In this document: positions 42,460-54,177 of the stretch, piece after piece
Position numbering within the stretch: the stretch's first letter is position 1
Layout of the letters: every line of letters begins with the position of its first letter
Origin: an uncultured Oceanospirillaceae bacterium
GTDB taxonomy: Bacteria > Pseudomonadota > Gammaproteobacteria > Pseudomonadales > Balneatricaceae
NCBI GenBank assembly: GCA_965366045.1
Contig: CBDUDU010000001.1
Span: 20,044-84,043, forward strand
Length of the DNA stretch: 64,000 bases
Reading direction: 5' to 3'
The notes under the pieces: generated by a model
Seen by the model: only the letters and a program-made list of their open reading frames with translations
Database searches by the model: none
What the model was told of the DNA's origin: nothing
Position numbers and translations under genes: made by a program

Positions 42460-43202
42460 AACTTGCGCTCCTCGGTGGCGGCCGCCGTTGCCTTTGCGAG
42501 TCGAATGCGGATGTCGATCTGTTGGCTGGCGTAGCCGATACAAATGCCAGATAAGGCGGCGATGACTAAACCTAACTGGTGTGGTAAGTCACGTAGCACT
42601 AATGCAAAAGCCGCCGCGCTGATCACCGATAACCACATGGGTTTATTACGCAAGTAAGGGATTACCAGGCCTAAAAAGGTCACCGACATGGCAAAATCTA
42701 AGCCCCACTGAGTCATATCAGGGAACAGCTCCCCTAAACCAATACCCAGCCAAGTACACACTTGCCAGTTGCTATACATAGCCACTATCGAGCCTAAAAA
42801 GAACCAGTGGGCGTGCTTCGTGTCTGAACGGCCTAAATACCGACTGTTAACGGCTGCAAAAGACTCATCGGTTAATCCAAAGGCTAATACGGCGCGCCAA
42901 GCCTGAGATAAATGACTCACCTTGTCCACCAGCGATGTGGCATAGAGCAAGTGGCGTAAATTCACTACAAAGGTGGTGGCCACGATAAGAACCGGGCCCA
43001 CGCCCGCTGCTAATAACCCCACCGCAATAAACTGAGATGAACCTGCAAATACAAATAACGACATGGCCATAGCAGCCAAGATGGACAGGCCGCTGGGTTC
43101 TGCCAAAGTGCCAAAAATAATGCCAAAAGGAATAGCTCCAATGATTAACGGAATAGTGGCTTTAGCGCCGTTGATAAATTCTGTGGACTTGCTTAAGAAC
43201 AT
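42456..43202 (-). CDS. azlC: AzlC family branched-chain amino acid exporter
   Basis: [28 protein letters not shown]. Confidence 0.92.
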
Positions 43203-43362
43203 GGCTAAGGTCGAGTGGAGAAACTAAACAGCCATTATACTAGCACTGATAAAAGGAGCAATTGTTTCGCAATCGTTTGCTATGATAAAAGTGCCGTTCG
43301 TCATAGGCCATTGGTCGCTTACAATGGACGGTCAGGCGGTTACAGGTACATCATGAATAAAT

Positions 43363-43677
43363 GTGAATGCTTATGCCATACAGCACCCAGGTTCAGATGA
43401 TCGCCAAAGTATCCAGTCGGTTGGCGTGCATTTGATAAGACTCTGTTTATTTTTAGAACACGGACTTACACCAGAAAATGCAAATGACGCCATGCTCGCC
43501 GCCGGTAAAAATAAGAGTTCGTTCTATGTTCTCGAACCACCAAAAACATTAGGGTCAATCACTGCAGCAGATATAGTGAAGGAACAAACAGTGGATGGGC
43601 ATAAAGCCGCTGTACGAAAGAGGGCTCAAGAGGCTTGGAACACATGGTCACAGCATCATGAGACTATTAGGATGTGA
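43363..43677 (+). pseudogene. N-terminally truncated DUF5946-like protein
   Basis: NAYAIQHPG...SVGVHLIRLCL pattern recalled from DUF5946; GTG start with no RBS and no recognisable N-terminal part. Confidence 0.5.
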
Positions 43678-43772
43678 TGACCAAAAAGATAAATCACCCA
43701 GATTGAACCGAGTATGGTGTAAACGTCAGTTATGGCCTTCAAAACTAGAGACTTGCTCTGGTGTTGTTACCC

Positions 43773-44696
43773 TCAATAATGCGATTTTTCTGGGTAGATT
43801 GGGCTGTCTTTTTGGCGCCACAGGGTTTGTTTTATGAGGCTCCAGTAGCTCCTGTAATAATAACCGCCATTACGCTGCAGGATTGATTGGCGATGGCATT
43901 GCCAGTGTCCATACACCATAAACCATGGCATCTGAGGGAACTCGTGGTGCACCTGATGTATGTTTACATTCATAAACAATACGCGGGTAAACCAAGAGCC
44001 CTCCACAATGGCGCAACGCTCATGGTTATTGTCGCCGGGCCTGTGCTCGGCATAAGATCTGGCTAAGGTGAGACTTAAACCTGGCCATACGCAAAACACC
44101 AGGTATTGCCACCACAGAATCCCTTGGCTGTGGAGCCACATCATCATTGCGCTCACTAAAAAAAGGTGTAGCCCCCAGTTGTTCCAGTCGTAAAGCTTGC
44201 CCTTGACTAACTGTTTTACTTCACTGTGTAAAAAAAGCCCCATTACCAGCCACGGCCCAATGATCATGCGGCCCATAAACGTGTGGTTAACCCGCCACAA
44301 TTTCCGCATTAAACGCCCCATGGAGTGCCATTTTCTGGGCCAGTGATAGTAGCTTTCTGGGTCTAACCCAGGTTGGGTTAGAACAGTCGTTTGGTGGTGT
44401 AAGAGATGGTGGTCGCGGTATTGGTAATAGGGTATCCACATGCTTAACGGTGGCCAGCCTAAGGCATCGTTAAGGCGCTTCCATGGGCTTGGGTGGCCGT
44501 GTATGAGTTCGTGTTGGATGCTGCCATGTAGGCACAACAGAAGCGCGCAAAGGGGCGAAACCAACCACCAAGATAGTAAACTGGCGTAATTCATTAACAT
44601 GACCCAAGCCCCATAAACGCCTACCATCAATGCCCAAGTGGGCCAGTGATGACGCTGCCATAGTGGACTCAGTTTGGTTTCTGACGTGTGCTGCAT
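43773..44696 (-). CDS. fatty acid desaturase family membrane di-iron enzyme
   Basis: His boxes HGSIQHELIH, RDHHLLHH, HQVHH; TM helices. Confidence 0.9.
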   Translation of the reverse strand: MQHTSETKLSPLWQRHHWPTWALMVGVYGAWVMLMNYASLLSWWLVSPLCALLLCLHGSIQHELIHGHPSPWKRLNDALGWPPLSMWIPYYQYRDHHLLHHQTTVLTQPGLDPESYYHWPRKWHSMGRLMRKLWRVNHTFMGRMIIGPWLVMGLFLHSEVKQLVKGKLYDWNNWGLHLFLVSAMMMWLHSQGILWWQYLVFCVWPGLSLTLARSYAEHRPGDNNHERCAIVEGSWFTRVLFMNVNIHQVHHEFPQMPWFMVYGHWQCHRQSILQRNGGYYYRSYWSLIKQTLWRQKDSPIYPEKSHY

Positions 44697-44795
44697 GGCT
44701 ATTAGGCTTAGGCTTGATTGTTGAAGGGTTGCAAGATAGCCTAGCGGTTACATTGTGACAATAGACACTTATTGCGCATTCTCAATATTTTGGTG

Positions 44796-44816
44796 TGTTG
44801 GTACAACATATGTTGT
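44796..44816. promoter_or_regulatory. overlapping palindromes, candidate XRE operator
   Basis: TGTTG-GTA-CAACA overlapping a perfect ACAACATATGTTGT in a divergent spacer. Confidence 0.55.
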
Positions 44817-44848
44817 TTAGGTACAAATGTTACTGGCGATTGAGGTAA

Positions 44849-45712
44849 ATGATGAACAGCCAAGAAAGGGTATTCCGTGTGCAGATATTTCGCAGCAGGC
44901 TTTTACAAGCCATGACTAACAGAAATATCAAACGCTCAGGCCTAGCTCAAGCCATTGGTGTGGACCGGTCAACCTTATCTCAATTGTTAGCCACAGATAA
45001 TGACCGCTTACCTAGAGTAGATACTCTCATGGCGATTGCATCTAAACTGCAGATTAGTGTGGATTGGTTGCTTGGTTTAACCAGTGAAGCGCGCTCTGGC
45101 GCAGAAATATTAAGCCAATCGTTGCAATTGACGCCAAGTTTGCCGCTGCCTTCCGATGGCAGTTTAAGGCTTTGGCACAAAGAGGCGGTGGGTAGCAAAG
45201 TTCGTTATGTGCCGGCTAATTTACCAGACTTGGTTAAAACCCAAGCTGTATTGGCCTGTGAATATGGCCAGTTTGAAAACGTGAGCCTAGAGCAAGTGAT
45301 GGAAACCACCAAAGAACGTTATCAAGCGACCCTACAGCCGGGTAGTGATCTGGAAATTTGTATGTCGGTACAGCGCTTGGAAGGCTTTGCTAACGGTGAA
45401 GGCATGTGGCAAACCCTGAGTGTTACAGATCGACGTGATCAATTAGAGTGGTTTGCTCAAGTGGCCGATGAGCTTTATCCAAAATTGCGGCTATATTTAT
45501 TTAATGAAAGTCGCAACTACGCCTCACCTTACACAATTTTTGGTACTAAGCGCTGCGCTGTATACCTTGGGCATATGTATTTTGTATTTAATACCACGGA
45601 CCATGTGCAAACGTTAACGGGCCATTTTGATGGGCTAATACGGGCGGCTGAGGTTCAGTCTCATGAGTTGAAAGATTGGATACATAAGTTGCTTAAAGAG
45701 ATGGGAGAATAG
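44849..45712 (+). CDS. XRE-family HTH regulator with large C-terminal domain
   Basis: LAQAIGVDRSTLSQL...P..DTL..IA..L.ISVDWLLGL. Confidence 0.88.
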   Translation: MMNSQERVFRVQIFRSRLLQAMTNRNIKRSGLAQAIGVDRSTLSQLLATDNDRLPRVDTLMAIASKLQISVDWLLGLTSEARSGAEILSQSLQLTPSLPLPSDGSLRLWHKEAVGSKVRYVPANLPDLVKTQAVLACEYGQFENVSLEQVMETTKERYQATLQPGSDLEICMSVQRLEGFANGEGMWQTLSVTDRRDQLEWFAQVADELYPKLRLYLFNESRNYASPYTIFGTKRCAVYLGHMYFVFNTTDHVQTLTGHFDGLIRAAEVQSHELKDWIHKLLKEMGE

Positions 45713-45715
45713 GTC

Positions 45716-46534
45716 TTGGCGCTAATTTGTGCATACCCGATGTATCAGATGCCTGAGTTGGAGGCGGTGGTTAGTGCTTGGTGGCAGTCTCTGCGCCAAC
45801 ACCTCTTGGCTCAAGGCTTGAGTGCTGGGGACCTACCTAATCTGTTGGTTGAACCAGAGAACTACTATGCCCATTGGCGTAAACCTAACCTGTTGTTGAG
45901 CCAAACCTGTGGTTACCCGTTGACTCACGAGTTACAAAATCAGGTCCAATATGTCGCTACTCAAAGCTACCAAACGGCCTACACCAAAGGGCCCAACTAC
46001 TGCAGCCTAGTATTGGTTCATAAAAAAAATAGCGCAAACCATATCAGCCAACTTAAATACACACGGCTAGCAGTAAATAGCGAGGATTCGCAATCTGGTT
46101 ATCACGCTTTAAGACGGTTTATTGCACCTCTCGCAGGCGGTGAACGGTTTTTTTCTGAGGTGGTTCACTCAGGAGCACACCGGCAGAGCATGGTCCTAGT
46201 GGCAAACGGCGAGGCCGATGTTTGCGCTGTTGATTGTGTCACTTATGGCTTATTGCAAACCCATGCACCAGCCACGATAGCCAACTTACGTGTTTTAACT
46301 CACACACAAAGTACGCTAGGGTTGCCTTACGTTACCAGTTTGGCTACGTCACCAGCGACACTGAGCAAGCTTAGAAGCGGTCTTGCGGCAGCCGCATTAG
46401 ACCCGGCGCTAAAATCAATACGGCAGCAGTTGTTGATGGGGCCAGTTGAGGTGATAACGGGGCTATATCCGTACCAAGAAATAATCAATCAAGCCCAGCA
46501 GGCCAATGAATTAGGTTACAAGCAGTTAGTTTAA
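45716..46534 (+). CDS. PhnD/SsuA-fold binding-protein-like, no signal peptide
   Basis: LLLSQTCGYP, Y.S.VLV, AVNSEDSQSGY, SGAH..S..LVA.G.ADV.AVDCVT. Confidence 0.8.
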   Translation: MALICAYPMYQMPELEAVVSAWWQSLRQHLLAQGLSAGDLPNLLVEPENYYAHWRKPNLLLSQTCGYPLTHELQNQVQYVATQSYQTAYTKGPNYCSLVLVHKKNSANHISQLKYTRLAVNSEDSQSGYHALRRFIAPLAGGERFFSEVVHSGAHRQSMVLVANGEADVCAVDCVTYGLLQTHAPATIANLRVLTHTQSTLGLPYVTSLATSPATLSKLRSGLAAAALDPALKSIRQQLLMGPVEVITGLYPYQEIINQAQQANELGYKQLV

Positions 46535-46550
46535 GAGAGAGAAAATTTAT

Positions 46551-47090
46551 ATGGCATACAGCGATATATTGCAGTTTTGGTACACAGAAATAGCACCACG
46601 TAATTGGTTTATTAAAGACTTAGAGTTCGACAAAATGCTCAAACGCCGGTTTGGCTACCTTCATCAGTGCGCAAGTGCAGGAGAGTTGGAAAGCTGGCGC
46701 CAAAAACCATTAGGGCGGTTAGCCGAAGTCATTGTGCTGGACCAATTTTCGCGCAACTTATTTAGAAATTCTGCCCAGGCCTTCGCATACGATGCCCAAG
46801 CGCTTACCTTGGCCCAAGCTGCTATAACTGCAGGGCATGATTCAGATATGTTGCCGCAACAAAAGTCTTTTTTGTACATGCCGTTTATGCACAGTGAATC
46901 GGCAAAAATACATCAACAAGCCGAACAATTGTTTAATCAACCAGGGTTAGAAAATAACTACGAATTTGAGCTTAAGCACAAAATTATCATTGATCAATTT
47001 GGCCGATACCCACACCGTAATAAACTGTTAGGTAGAACTTCAACCCCTGAAGAACTGCAGTTTTTGAGTGGGCCTAGGTCTTCGTTTTAA
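46551..47090 (+). CDS. DUF924 family protein
   Basis: ILQFW, LAEVIVLDQFSRN, F.YMPFMHSE, FGRYPHRN..LGR.ST.EE. Confidence 0.9.
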   Translation: MAYSDILQFWYTEIAPRNWFIKDLEFDKMLKRRFGYLHQCASAGELESWRQKPLGRLAEVIVLDQFSRNLFRNSAQAFAYDAQALTLAQAAITAGHDSDMLPQQKSFLYMPFMHSESAKIHQQAEQLFNQPGLENNYEFELKHKIIIDQFGRYPHRNKLLGRTSTPEELQFLSGPRSSF

Positions 47091-47261
47091 GGGTGGTGGC
47101 AAGTAACTTATATAGATTCACAGCATAGCCCACTATTAGAACTAAAGAGCGGCAGGCACTCTTTTTTGTAACCGAGATGGAAATTCCAAAATAAACGCCT
47201 ATACTTTTCAAAGCGTTGGGAGTGGAAGGTTTAGTTAAGAATAATTAGTAGTGCCGCGCTC

Positions 47262-47415
47262 TAATAATTATTTGCTGTTTTTGTTGTGGCTACAATGATA
47301 ATTTTAAGTCCAGGCTCTGGTGTTATTCTTACACTTACGAATTAAGTTCGTTATGGTATGTCTGGCGCTGTTGGAAGTATTGTAGGTATTGCTGTAGGCA
47401 CATTTAGCTAGGCAC
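47262..47415 (+). pseudogene. LysE/RhtB family translocator remnant
   Basis: NYLLF/(frameshift)VVATMIILSPGSGVILTLTN*VRYGMSGAVGSIVGIAVGTF; in-frame TAA at 47343. Confidence 0.7.
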
Positions 47416-47503
47416 AAGAAATGTCCAGCAGGTACTTGTAGAATGGACATGCAGACTGCTTAGGACAGGCATGGACGTAGATAAGTTAAATTAAAAGATC
47501 GAT

Positions 47504-48121
47504 CTATATATTCGATTTCTGTATAAGGTTGCCCCCTCGCCAAACGTATAAAGCCAGCAGTGGCTCACCTGATGTGCGCATTGAGTGTTTGATGTTACTG
47601 GCATGATAAATTAGTGGACAAGGGGCAACATGTTGCCAGCCTTTTTCTTCGTGATACCACTCAGCGGTTCCACTGAGTGGAAAGTATAATTCCTCCGCCA
47701 CGTGCCAATGCTCAGGGTAGGTAACATTATCACCAAAAAGAACTAGTCCACTTGATAACACATCGCTATGCCAATATGCATCGGGGCCTAGAAACTTTAT
47801 CCACCCATATTGCTGTAAAAATTCTTCACCAAAATCTTCTTCGGAGTACGTCTGATTGAAATGTAAATTAGATTTACTATCGATCATACGTTCGATTAAA
47901 GGCTGGTTTTCTTCAGGGGCCTGTTTTGCCATTTGTGACAAATAACATAATACTGGTAGACTTTTTGGCGCTAACATTCGGTCAGGCTTTTTCAAATCCA
48001 ACGCCGGTATTAAGCTGCACCAATCGGGCGGGCACCTTTGCCTTAGCTGAGCCAACCATAGGTCAGCCAGAGCCGACAAGCCAAGTGTGATTTTAGAATT
48101 ATTTGTAGTATCAGATTTCAT
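47504..48121 (-). CDS. cupin of the DMSP-lyase (DddQ/DddL-like) family
   Basis: YPEHWHVAEELY.PLSG cupin motif 1, HASNIKHSMRT motif 2, PLLALYVWRG. Confidence 0.75.
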   Translation of the reverse strand: MKSDTTNNSKITLGLSALADLWLAQLRQRCPPDWCSLIPALDLKKPDRMLAPKSLPVLCYLSQMAKQAPEENQPLIERMIDSKSNLHFNQTYSEEDFGEEFLQQYGWIKFLGPDAYWHSDVLSSGLVLFGDNVTYPEHWHVAEELYFPLSGTAEWYHEEKGWQHVAPCPLIYHASNIKHSMRTSGEPLLALYVWRGGNLIQKSNI

Positions 48122-48482
48122 ACAACACATTCTACCCAGATAGTATCTTGTGCCGATAGCCTAATTTATGTGGTTAAGCCTCACAGTTCCGAAATAACTA
48201 TTCACTCAGTTTTTAAACTAGTCGCCACAATATACACCAGCTTGATTTATGTTTAGTACAGCAACTGAACTAGACTTTAAATGGGTGGATGGGCACTGTT
48301 AACTCAGGCCATGAATAGCATCGAGCTGATTAGGCAGATTAATACTGGTCGCTGAAGAACTGCCCCAGTAATTTATAAGGAACATAATAATGAAAAGTAT
48401 AAATTTCCAACTACTTAGATCCAAAACATAATTACAGCTAGATTACACGCTGACAAGAAGGTTAAGTGCCTTTTGGTCGCAG

Positions 48483-49787
48483 CTAACCCCAAATATGTTT
48501 GTTCTGTCGCGTTGCTGGCCCATTGTTTGCGTTTCTGTCTGGTGCATCGCTTGTGGGTTTGCTTTTAGTCCGGTGCGTGGTTTTGGGCTGAGGCGGCTTA
48601 CTCTTGCGTATGTAATTCAAAATTGAAACGGGCACTACCTTTCTAACAACAAAACCTTCAATCTCTTTGCGCTTGATAATATGGTTTAAGCGGCTTTCTA
48701 TGGCGCACAGGTTTTTAAAGTCGCCCCATGCCACAAACGAGATAGCTTCGCCCGAGGCTCCAGCACGGCCTGTGCGACCAATACGGTGAATGTATTCTTC
48801 TGGCTTAAACGGTAAGTCATAATTTACCACCCGGCTAAGCTCACCAATATCGATACCGCGGGCAGCAACGCCTGTGGCGACTAGGTATTTTAGTTTGCCA
48901 GATTTAAAATCAGCTAAAATCTTTTCTCGACTGGCTTGGCTTTTGTCACCATGAATAGCGTCTGCTGCTATATCGCGTTTTGCTAGTTGGTCTACCAGCT
49001 TGGCCGCACCGTGCTTCTTCTCGATAAAAATGAGCGCCTGGTCCCATTTTTGATCGTTGATAAGATGGCTAAGTAGAGCAGATTTTCTGTCTTTATCTAC
49101 CGTGATTAGCCACTGGTCGATATTCGGTGCTGTGGTGGTTTTTGGTGAGACGGTTATTTCAATAGCCGGTTGGCTCATGTCGTTGTCTGAAAAACCATCA
49201 GCAAGGTGGCGCACTTCGTCGCTCATGGTGGCGGAAAATAGCAGGTTTTGACGACTTTGGGGCAGGCGGTCAATAATCTTATTCACTTCGTTACCAAAAC
49301 CCATGTCGACTATTCTGTCGGCTTCGTCTAATACCAGAACTTCTAATTCGTCAAAATGTAATGCCCGCTGGTGGGCCAAGTCCAGTAGTCGGCCTGGTGT
49401 GGCTACCAATATGTCAATGCCTTCGATCAGGCGTTGTTTTTGTGGTTCGGTATCAACGCCACCATATACGGCCATAGAGCTTAGATTTAAGTGTTTGCCA
49501 TAGTCTGCAATATTGGCAGCCACCTGCACGGCTAACTCACGGGTGGGGGTGAGAATAAGCGCGCGTATACGTTTGCCACGTAGTTTACGATCTTGGTTAA
49601 ACTTCTCCAATATCGGAAGAACAAAAGCAGCGGTTTTACCAGTACCCGTTTGAGCGGTCGCAATGAGGTCTTTACCCGCAATAACGGTGGGTATAGCTTG
49701 TTTTTGAATAGGTGTAGGAGACGTATAGCCCAAACCTTCGATTGCTTGTAGAAGGGGTTCGCATAATCCAAGGTTTGAAAATGACAT
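48483..49787 (-). CDS. DEAD-box RNA helicase (RhlE-like)
   Basis: Q motif, AQTGTGKT, PTRELA, DEAD, SAT, ARGID, HRIGRTGR. Confidence 0.95.
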   Translation of the reverse strand: MSFSNLGLCEPLLQAIEGLGYTSPTPIQKQAIPTVIAGKDLIATAQTGTGKTAAFVLPILEKFNQDRKLRGKRIRALILTPTRELAVQVAANIADYGKHLNLSSMAVYGGVDTEPQKQRLIEGIDILVATPGRLLDLAHQRALHFDELEVLVLDEADRIVDMGFGNEVNKIIDRLPQSRQNLLFSATMSDEVRHLADGFSDNDMSQPAIEITVSPKTTTAPNIDQWLITVDKDRKSALLSHLINDQKWDQALIFIEKKHGAAKLVDQLAKRDIAADAIHGDKSQASREKILADFKSGKLKYLVATGVAARGIDIGELSRVVNYDLPFKPEEYIHRIGRTGRAGASGEAISFVAWGDFKNLCAIESRLNHIIKRKEIEGFVVRKVVPVSILNYIRKSKPPQPKTTHRTKSKPTSDAPDRNANNGPATRQNKHIWG

Positions 49788-49895
49788 AGTTGCTCAGGTA
49801 AATGTTGGTAAAGAGTATGTACGGCATTATATCAGTATGGTGGTGGGTTTTGTTCTCTAGTGCTGTATTGGTGGCATTCTGTCTCGGTTTCACTT

Positions 49896-49911
49896 ATATT
49901 GTATACAATAT
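49896..49911. promoter_or_regulatory. GntR/FadR-type operator upstream of puuE
   Basis: perfect 16-bp palindrome ATATTGTATACAATAT with core TTGTATACAA. Confidence 0.75.
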
Positions 49912-49936
49912 TATGTACAATGTAGAAAAAGGTACC

Positions 49937-50860
49937 ATGACCGAAACATATCCCAGAAATTTGATTGGCTATAATGGCCAGCCTCCTAAAGTAGAATGGC
50001 CCAACAAAGCCCGTGTGGCCTTGTCTTTTGTGCTTAATTACGAAGAAGGCGGCGAGCGTTGTGTTTTACATGGCGACAGCGAGTCAGAAGCATTTTTATC
50101 TGAAATTATTGGGGTGCAACCTTATCAGGGTGTGCGCCACCCAAGCATGGAATCTATTTACGAATACGGCAGCCGCGCTGGTGTTTGGCGTATTTTGGAG
50201 CTGTTCAAAAAAAACGACATTCCGCTTACCGTCTTTGCTATTGCCATGGCGGCTCAACGCCATCCAGAAGTAGTGCAAGAAATGCACGCACATGGCCACG
50301 AAATCTGTAGCCATGGTTTACGTTGGATCGACTACCAATACATGGATCCACAGCTTGAGCGTGAGCACATGTGTGAAGCTATTGAGATCCTGACTCAAGT
50401 CACCGGCGAACGCCCTTTAGGTTGGTATACAGGGCGTAATAGCCCCAATACCCGTGATTTGGTAATGGAAGAGGGTGGCTTTGTTTACGATTCAGACGAC
50501 TATAGTGATGACCTGCCATTTTGGAGCCGTGGTTTAAATGGCAAGGGCGAGCCTCATCTTGTGATTCCTTATACCTTGGACACTAACGACATGCGTTTTG
50601 CTACGCCACAGGGGTTCCACACCAGCGAACAGTTTTTTCAATATTTAAAAGACGCTTTTGATGTGCTTTACGAAGAAGGCGCCTCAGCTCCTAAGATGTT
50701 ATCTGTTGGTATGCATTGCCGTTTGTTGGGTCGACCAGCTCGGCTTAAAGGCATTCAACGCTTCTTAGAGTACATAGGCCAGTTTGACGACGTTTGGTGT
50801 GCTCGCCGCATTGATATTGCTCGCCATTGGCAGCAGCACCATCCTTATGGAGGCGAATAA
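49937..50860 (+). CDS. puuE: allantoinase PuuE (polysaccharide deacetylase fold)
   Basis: YPRNLIGY, LNYEEGGE, ES.YEYGSRAG, GWYTGR.SPNT, SVGMHCRL.GRP. Confidence 0.95.
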   Translation: MTETYPRNLIGYNGQPPKVEWPNKARVALSFVLNYEEGGERCVLHGDSESEAFLSEIIGVQPYQGVRHPSMESIYEYGSRAGVWRILELFKKNDIPLTVFAIAMAAQRHPEVVQEMHAHGHEICSHGLRWIDYQYMDPQLEREHMCEAIEILTQVTGERPLGWYTGRNSPNTRDLVMEEGGFVYDSDDYSDDLPFWSRGLNGKGEPHLVIPYTLDTNDMRFATPQGFHTSEQFFQYLKDAFDVLYEEGASAPKMLSVGMHCRLLGRPARLKGIQRFLEYIGQFDDVWCARRIDIARHWQQHHPYGGE

Positions 50861-50861
50861 A

Positions 50862-51377
50862 ATGGCAGACTTAGCTAGCTGTACGCCAAGCCAGTTGTCA
50901 CGCAGTGCGTTTGTTGAACACTTTAAAGACCTGTACGAGCACTCGCCTTGGGTTGCCGAAGGGGTGTTTGATGGCGGTGTTTCCGTTGACTTGGATCAGT
51001 CTTCAGCACTGTTGATCGCGTTTAAAAACGTGATGTTGGGTGCACTTAAGGAGCAACAGCTAGCTCTTATTTGTTCTCACCCAGATTTAGCCGGTAAGGC
51101 TGCTATTCGGGGTGAACTTACTGCAGCGTCTACGTCTGAACAGGCTGGCGCAGGCATTAGTGAGTGTTCAGCAGCTGAGTTTGAGCGCTTTACCCAATTG
51201 AATGATGCTTATAAAGCCAGGTTTGGTTTTCCCTTTATTAAAGCCGTGAAAGGCAGTAACCGGCATCAAATATTAGCCGCATTTGAAAGCCGTATTGATA
51301 ACAGTGCTGAAGCTGAGTTTGCCCAAGCCCTCACAGAAATTAACAAAATCGCCAGCTTTCGTTTGGCCGATATGTAG
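50862..51377 (+). CDS. uraD: OHCU decarboxylase
   Basis: LYEHSPWVAE, HPDLAG, S.SEQAGAG, YKARFGFPFI.AV, I..IA..RL. Confidence 0.93.
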   Translation: MADLASCTPSQLSRSAFVEHFKDLYEHSPWVAEGVFDGGVSVDLDQSSALLIAFKNVMLGALKEQQLALICSHPDLAGKAAIRGELTAASTSEQAGAGISECSAAEFERFTQLNDAYKARFGFPFIKAVKGSNRHQILAAFESRIDNSAEAEFAQALTEINKIASFRLADM

Positions 51378-51398
51378 TCGCATTATTTAGGATTTTTT

Positions 51399-52433
51399 AT
51401 GACCCAAACCACAGAACAACGCCCACATAACCCATACGCACGCATGACCAATTTGGCCGATGCGCGTTTAGGTGCCGAAGCCATTCACTGCACAGACGAC
51501 TTTTTTGCCGACATGAACCGCATGTTACAAAACCATGACCCTGTGTGGAAAGAAGGCGTGTATGACGACAACGGTAAGTGGATGGACGGCTGGGAATCGC
51601 GCCGCAAGCGTCAACAAGGGCATGACCATTGCACCGTGCGTTTAGGTTTGCCGGGCCGTATTCGTGGCCTTAACATTGATACCAGCTTTTTCACTGGTAA
51701 CTACGCGCCCAGTGTGTCATTAGAAGCTTGTTACCTTGCAGATGGCGACCCAACAGAGGACACTCAGTGGCGCGAAGTGCAAGCAGCGTTAAACTTGCGA
51801 GGCGACAGCCATCATATTCAAGCTATTAACTGCAACGATGTATTTACCCATGTGCGTTTCCACATGTACCCAGACGGGGGTGTTGCACGTTTACGTATCT
51901 ATGGCGAAGTGGTTAAAGATTGGGCTGGGCAGGCCAACGATTTAGTTGACCTTGCCGCCATGGGCAACGGCGGCCGTGCCTTGTTATGTAGTGATGAACA
52001 TTTTGGCACCATGGACAATATTTTAGCTCCAGGCCGTGGCATTAACATGGGAGACGGCTGGGAAACCGCCCGCCGCCGTATTCCGGGTTTTGACTGGGTG
52101 ATTATTGCCTTGGGCCATGCCGGTACCGTGAGTGAAATTGAAGTGGACACAGCTCACTTTAAAGGTAATTTCCCCGATTCATGCTCTATTCAAGCGGCCT
52201 TTGTAGAAGGCGGCAGTGATGAACAAATGGCTGCCCAAAGTTTGTACTGGTCAGAACTCTTACCGTCGCAAAAGCTAAGCAAGGATCATATCCACGGTTA
52301 CAGCAATGAAGTGGTTGACCTTGGGCCTGTGACCCATGTGCGGTTAAATATTTTCCCCGATGGTGGTGTGTCACGTTTACGTATTAAGGGGCGGCTCTCA
52401 GGTCACGTTGTGGCCCAAGGTGAAGCCTCCTAA
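51399..52433 (+). CDS. alc: allantoicase
   Basis: DDFFA, DGWESRR, duplicated PDGGV.RLR and DGWETARRR. Confidence 0.95.
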   Translation: MTQTTEQRPHNPYARMTNLADARLGAEAIHCTDDFFADMNRMLQNHDPVWKEGVYDDNGKWMDGWESRRKRQQGHDHCTVRLGLPGRIRGLNIDTSFFTGNYAPSVSLEACYLADGDPTEDTQWREVQAALNLRGDSHHIQAINCNDVFTHVRFHMYPDGGVARLRIYGEVVKDWAGQANDLVDLAAMGNGGRALLCSDEHFGTMDNILAPGRGINMGDGWETARRRIPGFDWVIIALGHAGTVSEIEVDTAHFKGNFPDSCSIQAAFVEGGSDEQMAAQSLYWSELLPSQKLSKDHIHGYSNEVVDLGPVTHVRLNIFPDGGVSRLRIKGRLSGHVVAQGEAS

Positions 52434-52969
52434 TGGCTCAGTCACTTGTTATAGAAGCCTTAACCGCTCAAGCATTTGCAGGTTTTGGCGACGTTATCGA
52501 AGCCCACGCCGGTGATGGGTTTGGGATTAACCAAGGGTTTACCTGGCGCCACCACAAGCTAGCAACGGTGAGTACAGATCAGGCTAACGATGATGCTATT
52601 ATCAGCATATTCAGTAGCAAAAACAGGCCCATGCCTATTGCTATTAATATGATGGAGCGCCACCCGTTAGGCAGCCAAGCGTTTATGCCCTTGAGCGATA
52701 CGCCATTTTTGGTGGTGGTTGCTAAGGCTGGGCCAGAGCCTCAACTAGCCGATCTGAAGGCCTTTGTCACTAACGGCAAGCAGGGTGTGAATTACGGCAC
52801 TGGCGTATGGCATCATCCGTTGTTGATCTTGGCGCCACAACAAGACTTTTTGGTGGTCGACCGCGCTGGAGAAGGCAATAACCTTAATGAAGTGATGTTT
52901 AGTGAAGACCAATGCGCGCAGCTAGACGTGACCGAACTCATTAATAATATAACCACGAATAGAGAGTAA
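52433..52969 (+). CDS. allA: ureidoglycolate lyase
   Basis: LT..AFA.FGDVI, MERHPLGSQAF, GVNY..GVWHHP, FLVVDR. Confidence 0.93.
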   Translation: MAQSLVIEALTAQAFAGFGDVIEAHAGDGFGINQGFTWRHHKLATVSTDQANDDAIISIFSSKNRPMPIAINMMERHPLGSQAFMPLSDTPFLVVVAKAGPEPQLADLKAFVTNGKQGVNYGTGVWHHPLLILAPQQDFLVVDRAGEGNNLNEVMFSEDQCAQLDVTELINNITTNRE

Positions 52970-52971
52970 TT

Positions 52972-54177
52972 ATGGAAGCTCATTTATTAGAATGGCTGAA
53001 CCTAATCATCCGCTGGGTGCATGTCATTGTTGGTATCGCCTGGATTGGTGCCTCCTTCTATTTTGTATGGTTAGAAAACAACCTAGATCGCCAAGTAAAA
53101 AATCAAGATTTGGCTGGTGAGTTATGGGCTATACATGGCGGTGGTATTTATCACCTACAAAAATACAAGTTAGCGCCAGCCACTATGCCAAAACATTTGC
53201 ACTGGTTTAAGTGGGAGGCCTACAGTTCGTGGATTTCTGGTGTGCTGTTGCTCAGTGTGGTGTATTACCTTAACGCCGCAACCTATTTGATTTTGCCCGG
53301 TTCACCTGTTTCGCCTGCTGCAGGCGTGGTCATTGGCTTGGGTAGTTTGATAATGGGTTGGTGCGTTTACGACCTCTTATGTAAGAGTGCGTTACGTCAT
53401 CAGCCTTTGCTGTTGGGCGTTGCCTTAATGGTATTCTTGGTATTAGTGGCATGGGGGTTTAGCCAGTTTATGACAGGCCGAGCAGCATACCTACACGTAG
53501 GGGCGGTGATCGGTACGATGATGGTGGGCAACGTGTTCTATATCATCATGCCTGCTCAGAGAAACTTAGTAGGCGCCATAGAGGCTGGCACAGCACCGGA
53601 TCCAGCATTACCTAAAAATGGTTTGTTACGTTCGCGCCATAACAATTACCTTACTTTACCAGTGATCTTTATCATGGTGAGTAGCCATTTCCCAAGCACT
53701 TACGGGCATGAGTGGAACTGGGTGATTTTACTAGGGCTGTCGCTTGTGAGCGTGGTGGTACGCCATTATTTTAACACCCGTCACAATAGCCAGCAGTTTT
53801 TGTGGGCCTTGCCCGCGGCCGTGTTAGCTTTATTGGTGATGGCCTATGTCACCGTGCCACAAGTTCCGGGGTCTAGTACCGCCAAGTCTACTCAACAAGC
53901 CGAAGTGGTGGCGCCTGTAACCGCGCAACAAGCCCATTACATTGTGGCCACACACTGTGCGACTTGTCATTCGGCTACGCCTTCCCATGCGGCGTTCTCT
54001 ACAGCGCCTGCAGGGTTAATATTCGATTCCATCGACGAGATCAAGCGTTATAAAGATCGTATTTATTTACAATCGGTAGCGAGCCGCATTATGCCCTTAG
54101 GCAATAGTACGGGCATGACTCAAGACGAGCGTGACCAGTTAGGTCGTTGGATTTCCGACGGCGCAAACACTCAATAA
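52972..54177 (+). CDS. puuD: membrane urate hydroxylase PuuD with cytochrome c domain
   Basis: RW.HV..GIAWIG.SFYF, HGGG.Y, RSRHNNYLTLPV, C-terminal CATCH. Confidence 0.92.
   Translation: MEAHLLEWLNLIIRWVHVIVGIAWIGASFYFVWLENNLDRQVKNQDLAGELWAIHGGGIYHLQKYKLAPATMPKHLHWFKWEAYSSWISGVLLLSVVYYLNAATYLILPGSPVSPAAGVVIGLGSLIMGWCVYDLLCKSALRHQPLLLGVALMVFLVLVAWGFSQFMTGRAAYLHVGAVIGTMMVGNVFYIIMPAQRNLVGAIEAGTAPDPALPKNGLLRSRHNNYLTLPVIFIMVSSHFPSTYGHEWNWVILLGLSLVSVVVRHYFNTRHNSQQFLWALPAAVLALLVMAYVTVPQVPGSSTAKSTQQAEVVAPVTAQQAHYIVATHCATCHSATPSHAAFSTAPAGLIFDSIDEIKRYKDRIYLQSVASRIMPLGNSTGMTQDERDQLGRWISDGANTQ

Follow-up and report, generated by a model that had tools for sequence, protein, structure and literature searches.

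The Cupin-DLL superfamily is defined by six residues, those of an HxHxxxxExY motif, a histidine of the second motif and a terminal Trp or Tyr, which serve the cleavage of DMSP in DddQ, DddL, DddK, DddW and DddY alike (bioRxiv 10.1101/161257). The survey of Lei et al. covers 361 sequences in eight clades, and its authors conclude that dedicated DMSP lyases are a minority among the Cupin-DLLs (bioRxiv 10.1101/161257). DddQ itself has a kcat/KM below 1 M-1 s-1, its DMSP cleavage is argued to be probably promiscuous, and Lei, Tawfik et al. proposed from its gene neighbourhood a part in proline-betaine-like catabolism (bioRxiv 10.1101/161257). Solved DddQ structures come from Roseovarius nubinhibens, Ruegeria lacuscaerulensis and Ruegeria pomeroyi (PDB 4B29, 4LA2/5JSO and 5CU1, respectively).

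Here we analyse a gene of this superfamily from an uncultured Oceanospirillaceae bacterium. The window, which is the whole stretch of 64,000 nucleotides of contig CBDUDU010000001.1 that was analysed, belongs to a genome of 2.31 Mb in 125 contigs that is 96% complete, with Candidatus Njordibacter sp. Uisw_039 and Uisw_056 as the nearest named genomes. In GTDB, Njordibacter is the genus ASP10-02a, which is abundant in polar waters (PMC12421898; PMC4620155): it makes up about 6-10% of Arctic communities (PMC12421898), and in Antarctic polynya blooms its share of the reads reaches 11% (PMC4620155). A 2026 paper describes the genus, on the basis of annotation, as the main Southern Ocean carrier of DMSP lyases, and we infer that the genes behind such annotations are most likely PF16867 cupins. 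The cupin of the window may release the climate gas dimethyl sulfide (DMS) in an abundant polar marine bacterium.

The cupin protein and its place in the family

The gene (47504-48130, minus strand) is one ORF encoding a DddQ-like cupin of 208 aa. The first-pass annotation placed its end at 48121, which is a second in-frame ATG (M4) and thus an alternative start, and the full ORF reaches 48130. The protein scores 89.4 bits against PF16867 (DMSP_lyase; cut-off 27) and covers profile positions 13-162 of 162, with only 20 bits against the generic Cupin_2 model, and no NCBIfam model matches it at E <= 1. A PDB-wide chain search with the cupin as query returned only DddQ structures below E 0.1 (4b29, E 1e-20; 4la2/5jso, 3e-17; 5cu1, 9e-14). 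The corresponding phmmer scores against the solved DddQs are 55-78 bits, and the DddK/DddW chains 5tfz and 6a53 gave no phmmer match at E <= 10. By sequence, then, the protein belongs to PF16867 and to the Cupin-DLLs, and the original family call stands.

The first cupin motif, HWHVAEELY (H141, H143, E147 and Y149; 47684-47710, minus strand), aligns with HSHQAEELY and HEHLPEELY of DddQ and holds predicted metal ligands and the predicted catalytic Tyr. The second (H176, H182 and W197; 47540-47605, minus strand) holds, by the same alignment, the predicted third metal ligand and the active-site Trp. H141, H143, E147, Y149, H182 and W197 align with H123, H125, E129, Y131, H163 and W178 of DddQ, and all six residues that define the Cupin-DLLs are kept; the intact HxH...E and distal His reported earlier are these residues (H141-W-H143-V-A-E-E147-L-Y149, then H182 and W197). 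H141, Y149, H176 and H182 are invariant in 20 clade members, at least 90% of them retain H143, E147 and W197, and HxHxAEE[LI]Y is present in 31 of the 31 unbroken clade copies examined.

An AlphaFold2 model of the cupin, built from 19 sequences, has a mean pLDDT of 91.7. Foldseek aligns it with DddQ (4la3, 4b29, 5jsp and 5cu1) over about 195 columns at TM 0.79-0.86 (TMq 0.76-0.79, TMt 0.80-0.86), E 5e-19 to 4e-16 and 23-26% identity. Other cupins match the model over the barrel only (TMq about 0.4), so the protein is predicted to have the complete DddQ architecture, beyond a bare cupin motif. Compared with the Uisw_039 copy the gene has a dN/dS of 0.19, by which it is under purifying selection.

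The host genome encodes three PF16867 paralogs, of which A is the cupin of the window, and 24 further genomes of the genus were used to count their distribution. Paralog B is the most widespread (17 of 25 genomes of the genus), C occurs in about 10 of 25, and A is rare. With a protein query, copies of A were found in 3 of the 24 congeners, one of them interrupted by stop codons; 16 genomes that represent other families of the order yielded no copy. The cultured isolates Uisw_039 and Uisw_056 carry A and other genomes of the genus are without it; the gene is accessory. Broken A-type copies are seen at L189, L192 and L193, from metagenomes, and at G409:C161:15041-15638, with the EamA...Sel1...mmuM context retained.

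Paralogs B and C share the family and the catalytic motif with A, but are distant from it (42-44 bits) and lie in other clades of the tree. Paralog B (contig C2, L114:5778-6419, minus strand, also L001:1432-2073) has 213 aa, scores 117 bits and carries HQHEPEELY. Its neighbours encode an MFS transporter, a Zn-dependent dehydrogenase (Zn-ADH) and a mandelate-racemase/MLE-type enzyme, surroundings that recall the dddQ neighbourhood behind the proline-betaine inference of Lei et al. Paralog C (contig C29, L003:1441-2040, minus strand; 199 aa, 60 bits, HRHDALELY) is flanked by a sugar-type ABC importer and a gene of the indolepyruvate:ferredoxin oxidoreductase family.

An exhaustive phmmer search of 1.84 billion cluster representatives (50%-identity clusters) gave 540 at E <= 1e-10, and more than 150 of these 540 (the best 150 reach down to 80.8 bits) outscore every solved DddQ as matches to the cupin. 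The phylogeny was calculated from 61 rows (IQ-TREE, LG+G4, ultrafast bootstrap / SH-aLRT), with the ratified DddQ clade represented by a proxy from a Leisingera-type genome (L146:3361-4080) and not by the ratified sequences themselves. This was the one good proxy obtained from a sample of 401 Alphaproteobacteria genomes and 20 further regions, and its bit scores are 212 with 4b29, 171 with 4la2 and 125 with 5cu1. The other candidates (L141, L140, L131, L146:526-1116 and L150) were discarded, being no or only slightly closer to the solved DddQs than is A.

The window protein falls in a clade of nine marine, mostly gammaproteobacterial sequences (100/100). The proxy clade (99/95) lies within an 11-row DddQ-like group (90/94), and the window clade lies beyond that 90/94 branch, where its partners are sequences of the Mesorhizobium type and others from Alpha- and Betaproteobacteria, many from non-marine sources (89/91). 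A constrained tree that unites the window clade with the DddQ-like group is worse by 7.6 log-likelihood units, a difference too small for its rejection (p-AU 0.31). On this proxy-based tree the window protein is outside the ratified DddQ clade, with a sister placement not rejected, and the clustering with ratified DddQs to be expected under the first reading was not recovered; none of the three Njordibacter paralog types falls in that clade among the 61 rows. No DddL-like affinity emerged from PDB searches with the three paralogs, none of which returned a DddL chain, and A scores 24-48 bits against the two alphaproteobacterial clades that score highest on PF16867, and lies far from both in the tree. 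The family to which the window cupin adds a member is known but for the most part uncharacterised.

The scan of genome contigs also found a relative with 40-45% identity and the full catalytic motif in 70-odd Mesorhizobium species (L010-L083). In one complete Mesorhizobium genome (L017) its neighbours are a 3-hydroxyisobutyrate-dehydrogenase-like gene on one side and cobQ on the other, which offers no functional lead. These relatives form a soil lineage of 'DMSP-lyase-like' cupins without an obvious source of DMSP.

Origin and setting of the locus

The first-pass annotation described the gene as AT-rich, apparently foreign and flanked by scars, and all of this is borne out. Its GC content is 0.431 (GC3 0.402), against a mean of 0.490 (sd 0.022) for 1344 long ORFs of the same genome, only 0.8% of which are below 0.425. 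Sampled loci of Uisw_039 and Uisw_056 have a GC content of 0.427-0.433, to which the cupin gene is close, unlike its own genome.

The gene lies in a patch (47410-48413) made up of a putative promoter region, the remnant of a small ORF, the cupin gene itself and a 3' tail. Ca. Njordibacter Uisw_039 has DNA of 90-95% identity to this patch at another location. Positions 47410-48190 match Uisw_039 at 95.1% identity over 782 bp and positions 48193-48403 at 89.6% over 211 bp (blastn), and the 8 kb on each side of the Uisw_039 copy contain nothing that matches the window. When positions 43000-53000 of the window were searched against the two complete Njordibacter genomes, the syntenic backbone of Uisw_039 was found at 1.60-1.61 Mb, with the cupin copy at 2.30 Mb. 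The backbone (DEAD-box helicase, DUF924 gene and rightward genes) is 72-79% identical to Uisw_039, and synonymous divergence from that genome is 0.107 for the cupin gene against 1.72 for the adjacent helicase.

Three gene stumps, all matching the Uisw_039 context, mark the patch. At 47412-47441 (plus strand) a Sel1-repeat gene has left its final 9 codons and stop (AQEMSSRYL*), identical in translation to the C-terminus of L004:8690-9964 (minus strand), the gene downstream of the cupin in Uisw_039. A small ORF survives at 48161-48190 (minus strand) as its final 9 codons and stop (GTVRLNHIN*; compared with the product of L004:7631-7969). At 48390-48413 (plus strand) are the first 8 codons of a divergent upstream gene (MKSINFQL, located exactly; compared with the N-terminus of L004:6994-7482, minus strand, MKSMKSMNFQLG). 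The small ORF, of about 92 aa, precedes the cupin in contexts of the Uisw_039 type (L004, L166 and L167) and has no Pfam or NCBIfam match; the rest of it was taken by a 261-bp deletion, seen as a 261-column alignment gap, with its junction near 48193. Contig C25 of the host genome has two stretches about 75% identical in DNA to this ORF.

The upstream region imported with the patch (48131-48389, minus strand) is 89.6% identical to the region 5' of the small ORF in Uisw_039 and is a putative promoter. Because the intervening small ORF has been deleted, this region probably drives the cupin gene now, and it has promoter-like sites on the minus strand at 48302-48274 and 48156-48129, which are consensus matches only.

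The neighbours of the gene in the window, identified by reading translations, are presumably a DEAD-box helicase and a DUF924 gene. The slot between the helicase and the DUF924/AzlCD genes (47214-48484) varies across Njordibacter and is occupied here by the cupin patch. In Uisw_039 it holds a rhodanese-like gene (identified by eye), two small ORFs and the DUF924 gene, and in Uisw_056 a rhodanese-like gene and a sigma-54-type regulator (both by eye) with a desaturase/XRE/PhnD-like module; neither has a cupin there. Most simply, about 1.25 kb of a Uisw_039-like Njordibacter genome was recently copied by recombination into the variable slot, and the deletion that came afterwards left the present patch of about 1 kb.

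An integron cassette or mobile element was considered and rejected: the flanks have no repeats in the genome, no integrase or integron-type site was found, the 3' hairpin is not significant (z -1.1), and the ends of the patch fall inside neighbouring genes of the donor context. A functional link between the cupin and the PhnD-like gene at 45716-46534 was also rejected, as their adjacency stems from the recent insertion and does not recur near 33 other clade loci, whose neighbours are partly annotated. Since the patch was dropped between unrelated genes, its neighbours in the window are uninformative on function.

Candidate functions

DMSP is, to our knowledge, the only substrate documented for this scaffold. 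Scaffold and conserved residues both favour a beta-elimination that depends on a metal and acts on a small onium carboxylate. H143, E147 and H182 would hold Fe, Zn or Mn, to which a small zwitterionic acid, sulfonium or a related onium, would bind by its carboxylate; Y149, aided by H141, would take the alpha-proton, and beta-elimination would free a neutral leaving group and an unsaturated acid, which would be dimethyl sulfide and acrylate if the substrate were DMSP. We consider it probable that the window cupin is a lyase of small sulfonium or onium acids. The account that we favour overall, by a lesser degree of confidence, is that of an intact, recently imported accessory Cupin-DLL gene encoding such a metal-dependent onium-acid lyase. 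Several findings count against it: besides the position outside the ratified DddQ clade, the better-scoring cluster representatives, the absence of DMSP genes from 36 clade loci and the promiscuity argued for DddQ, the gene can be dispensed with, several relatives carry it in broken form, and the nearest relatives outside the clade come from Mesorhizobium of soils and from further Alpha- and Betaproteobacteria that are not marine, for which DMSP is no obvious substrate.

Recombinant cupin would, on balance, be expected to release detectable DMS from DMSP, but DMSP is rather unlikely to be the native substrate. That role is not to be assumed, since most Cupin-DLLs, and probably DddQ too, are not dedicated DMSP lyases according to bioRxiv 10.1101/161257, the larger group that includes the window clade comes partly from soil bacteria such as Mesorhizobium, no acrylate genes lie near the related loci, and the clade is linked to genes for methionine/sulfonium methyl transfer. 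The earlier caveat that a different substrate was possible was well placed.

The host does have genes for DMSP use. The first-pass annotation saw no acuI adjacent to the cupin, as is the case, and suggested a search of the genome; this located an equivalog of AcuI (acrylyl-CoA reductase) on another contig, C53 (558 bits, cut-off 440). Contig C3 carries two tandem dmdA genes (L112:1392-5000; DmdA equivalogs at 445 and 465 bits, cut-off 410) followed directly by metY (O-acetylhomoserine sulfhydrylase), a dmdA-dmdA-metY layout that suits assimilation of methanethiol from DMSP. No two-domain DddD was found in the host genome. With AcuI and two DmdA proteins, the organism has DMSP in its diet and can deal with acrylyl-CoA, so a lyase role stays plausible.

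The cupin could accordingly be a dedicated DMSP lyase that forms a cleavage branch (DMS and acrylate, with detoxification by AcuI) beside the DmdA branch, as DddK does in SAR11. The full catalytic set, the DddQ fold and the dmdA and acuI genes of the host speak for this proposal, but the lyase call for the genus in the 2026 paper is annotation only, the protein is outside the ratified DddQ clade and its sister lineages are in soil bacteria. The gene is, moreover, accessory within the genus (3 of 24 congeners), and the precedent of the superfamily is of enzymes that mostly are not DMSP lyases. We collected 36 clade loci from genome- and metagenome-contig scans, 265 kb in all, and clustered their neighbours; AcuI, DmdA or any other acrylate/DMSP gene was absent from these 265 kb. 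We regard a dedicated DMSP lyase as doubtful. The DMSP-lyase reading first given to this gene is supported in part: by the family, the fold, the six residues and the acuI and dmdA genes of the host, and not by the position in the tree or the neighbourhoods of the 36 loci.

The same neighbourhoods could point to another sulfonium substrate, tied to methionine salvage. An MmuM-type homocysteine S-methyltransferase is encoded within three genes of the cupin at 12 of 33 clade loci (PF02574, 262 bits; NCBIfam equivalog NF007020, 373 bits, cut-off 215). At seven loci (L009, L181-L183, L187, L188 and L190) the start of the mmuM-type gene abuts or overlaps the cupin stop and a D-2-hydroxyacid dehydrogenase gene follows, with a YiiD_C thioesterase gene next in three of the seven (L009, L182 and L188). 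The cupin-mmuM operon is often found downstream of an NnrS gene. In the Uisw_056-type arrangement mmuM is three genes from the cupin on the opposite strand, among EamA, SBP_bac_3, PhyH and amidohydrolase genes, and the pairing thus occurs in two different arrangements. The main text of bioRxiv 10.1101/161257, as far as consulted, describes neither the marine gammaproteobacterial clade nor the MmuM link.

The substrate could in this case be, for instance, a derivative of S-methylmethionine or of 4-dimethylsulfonio-2-hydroxybutyrate, processed together with the MmuM-type enzyme and the D-2-hydroxyacid dehydrogenase. However, no mmuM lies near the window copy or its donor type, the host genome has no MmuM ortholog (the best tblastn match is 25% identical), and the linkage could mean shared regulation by sulfur or methyl status and not a common substrate. 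A methionine-salvage substrate for the window cupin is, in our estimate, unlikely. A bolder form of the idea, which we rate as quite unlikely, is that the clade supplies the sulfonium-cleaving or oxidative step of a new salvage route, working with the MmuM-type enzyme and the D-2-hydroxyacid dehydrogenase on S-methylmethionine- or DMSHB-type compounds, with DMSP cleavage as a side reaction. The step might be the release of DMS from 4-dimethylsulfonio-2-oxobutyrate, or the DMSHB-processing activity noted in PMC11306096, for which the enzyme is still to be identified. If this were true, counts of 'DMSP lyases' in polar metagenomes would overstate the potential for DMS.

Breakdown of a betaine-type quaternary amine, with an amine in place of DMS as leaving group, has been inferred for DddQ by Lei et al. 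(bioRxiv 10.1101/161257). The window and the host genome are rich in methylated-amine and betaine genes: the 2.3-Mb genome encodes 15 GCV_T-domain proteins, mostly DMGDH/sarcosine-oxidase-type fusions of 770-1000 aa, an abundance that points to heavy investment in demethylating methylated amines, and TauD-family dioxygenases and class II aldolases occur near some relatives of the cupin. Against this, the present neighbours of the gene stem from a recent insertion and say little, and no mandelate-racemase or DMGDH neighbour was found at the clade loci. Trimethylamine-type groups are also, as a matter of general chemistry, much poorer leaving groups in an elimination than DMS, and we hold betaine breakdown to be improbable. 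That the cupin is a passenger brought in by recombination, unexpressed or heading for decay, would agree with its accessory distribution, the broken copies in G409, L189, L192 and L193 and the deletion of its upstream partner ORF in the window, but is most improbable given the intact frame with all catalytic residues kept, the dN/dS of 0.19 and the donor promoter region imported along with the gene.

The Southern Ocean claim is affected in three respects. The genus has three distant paralog types, none of them in the ratified DddQ clade; paralog A is a mobile accessory gene of few species of the genus; and the activities of proven family members differ by up to six orders of magnitude. Estimates of polar sulfur flux are therefore directly affected by the question whether these cupins do produce DMS.

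Comparison with known systems

The definition of the Cupin-DLL superfamily, as given in bioRxiv 10.1101/161257, applies fully to the window cupin, whose clade, like most clades of the superfamily, has no assayed member. Like DddQ, the protein is a PF16867 member of the same length class, predicted to have N-terminal helices and a cupin barrel, and it has the same six active-site residues and in addition a Tyr aligned with Tyr120 of DddQ. Both are probably cytoplasmic.

Unlike DddQ, which is a Roseobacter protein, the window cupin is gammaproteobacterial. It is only 23-26% identical to DddQ over the structural alignment, and its 55-78 bits compare with 125-212 for the true clade member L146:3361-4080 against the same structures. 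An N-terminal CPxDW motif is specific to its clade. The cluster of mandelate-racemase-like and DMGDH-like neighbours of dddQ is absent, as far as genes were annotated, from the 33 clade loci and the window.

The window cupin has the metal site and catalytic Tyr of DddK and DddW in common, by prediction, but these small single-domain enzymes are without the N-terminal helical part (Foldseek TMq 0.42-0.45; solved DddK chains have 136-150 residues), whereas the model of the window cupin shows about 90 additional residues, largely a helical region, ahead of the barrel. DddY, which is periplasmic, likewise shares the metal site and the Tyr, and its solved chains, at 407 residues, are about twice as long as the window cupin (TMt 0.33).
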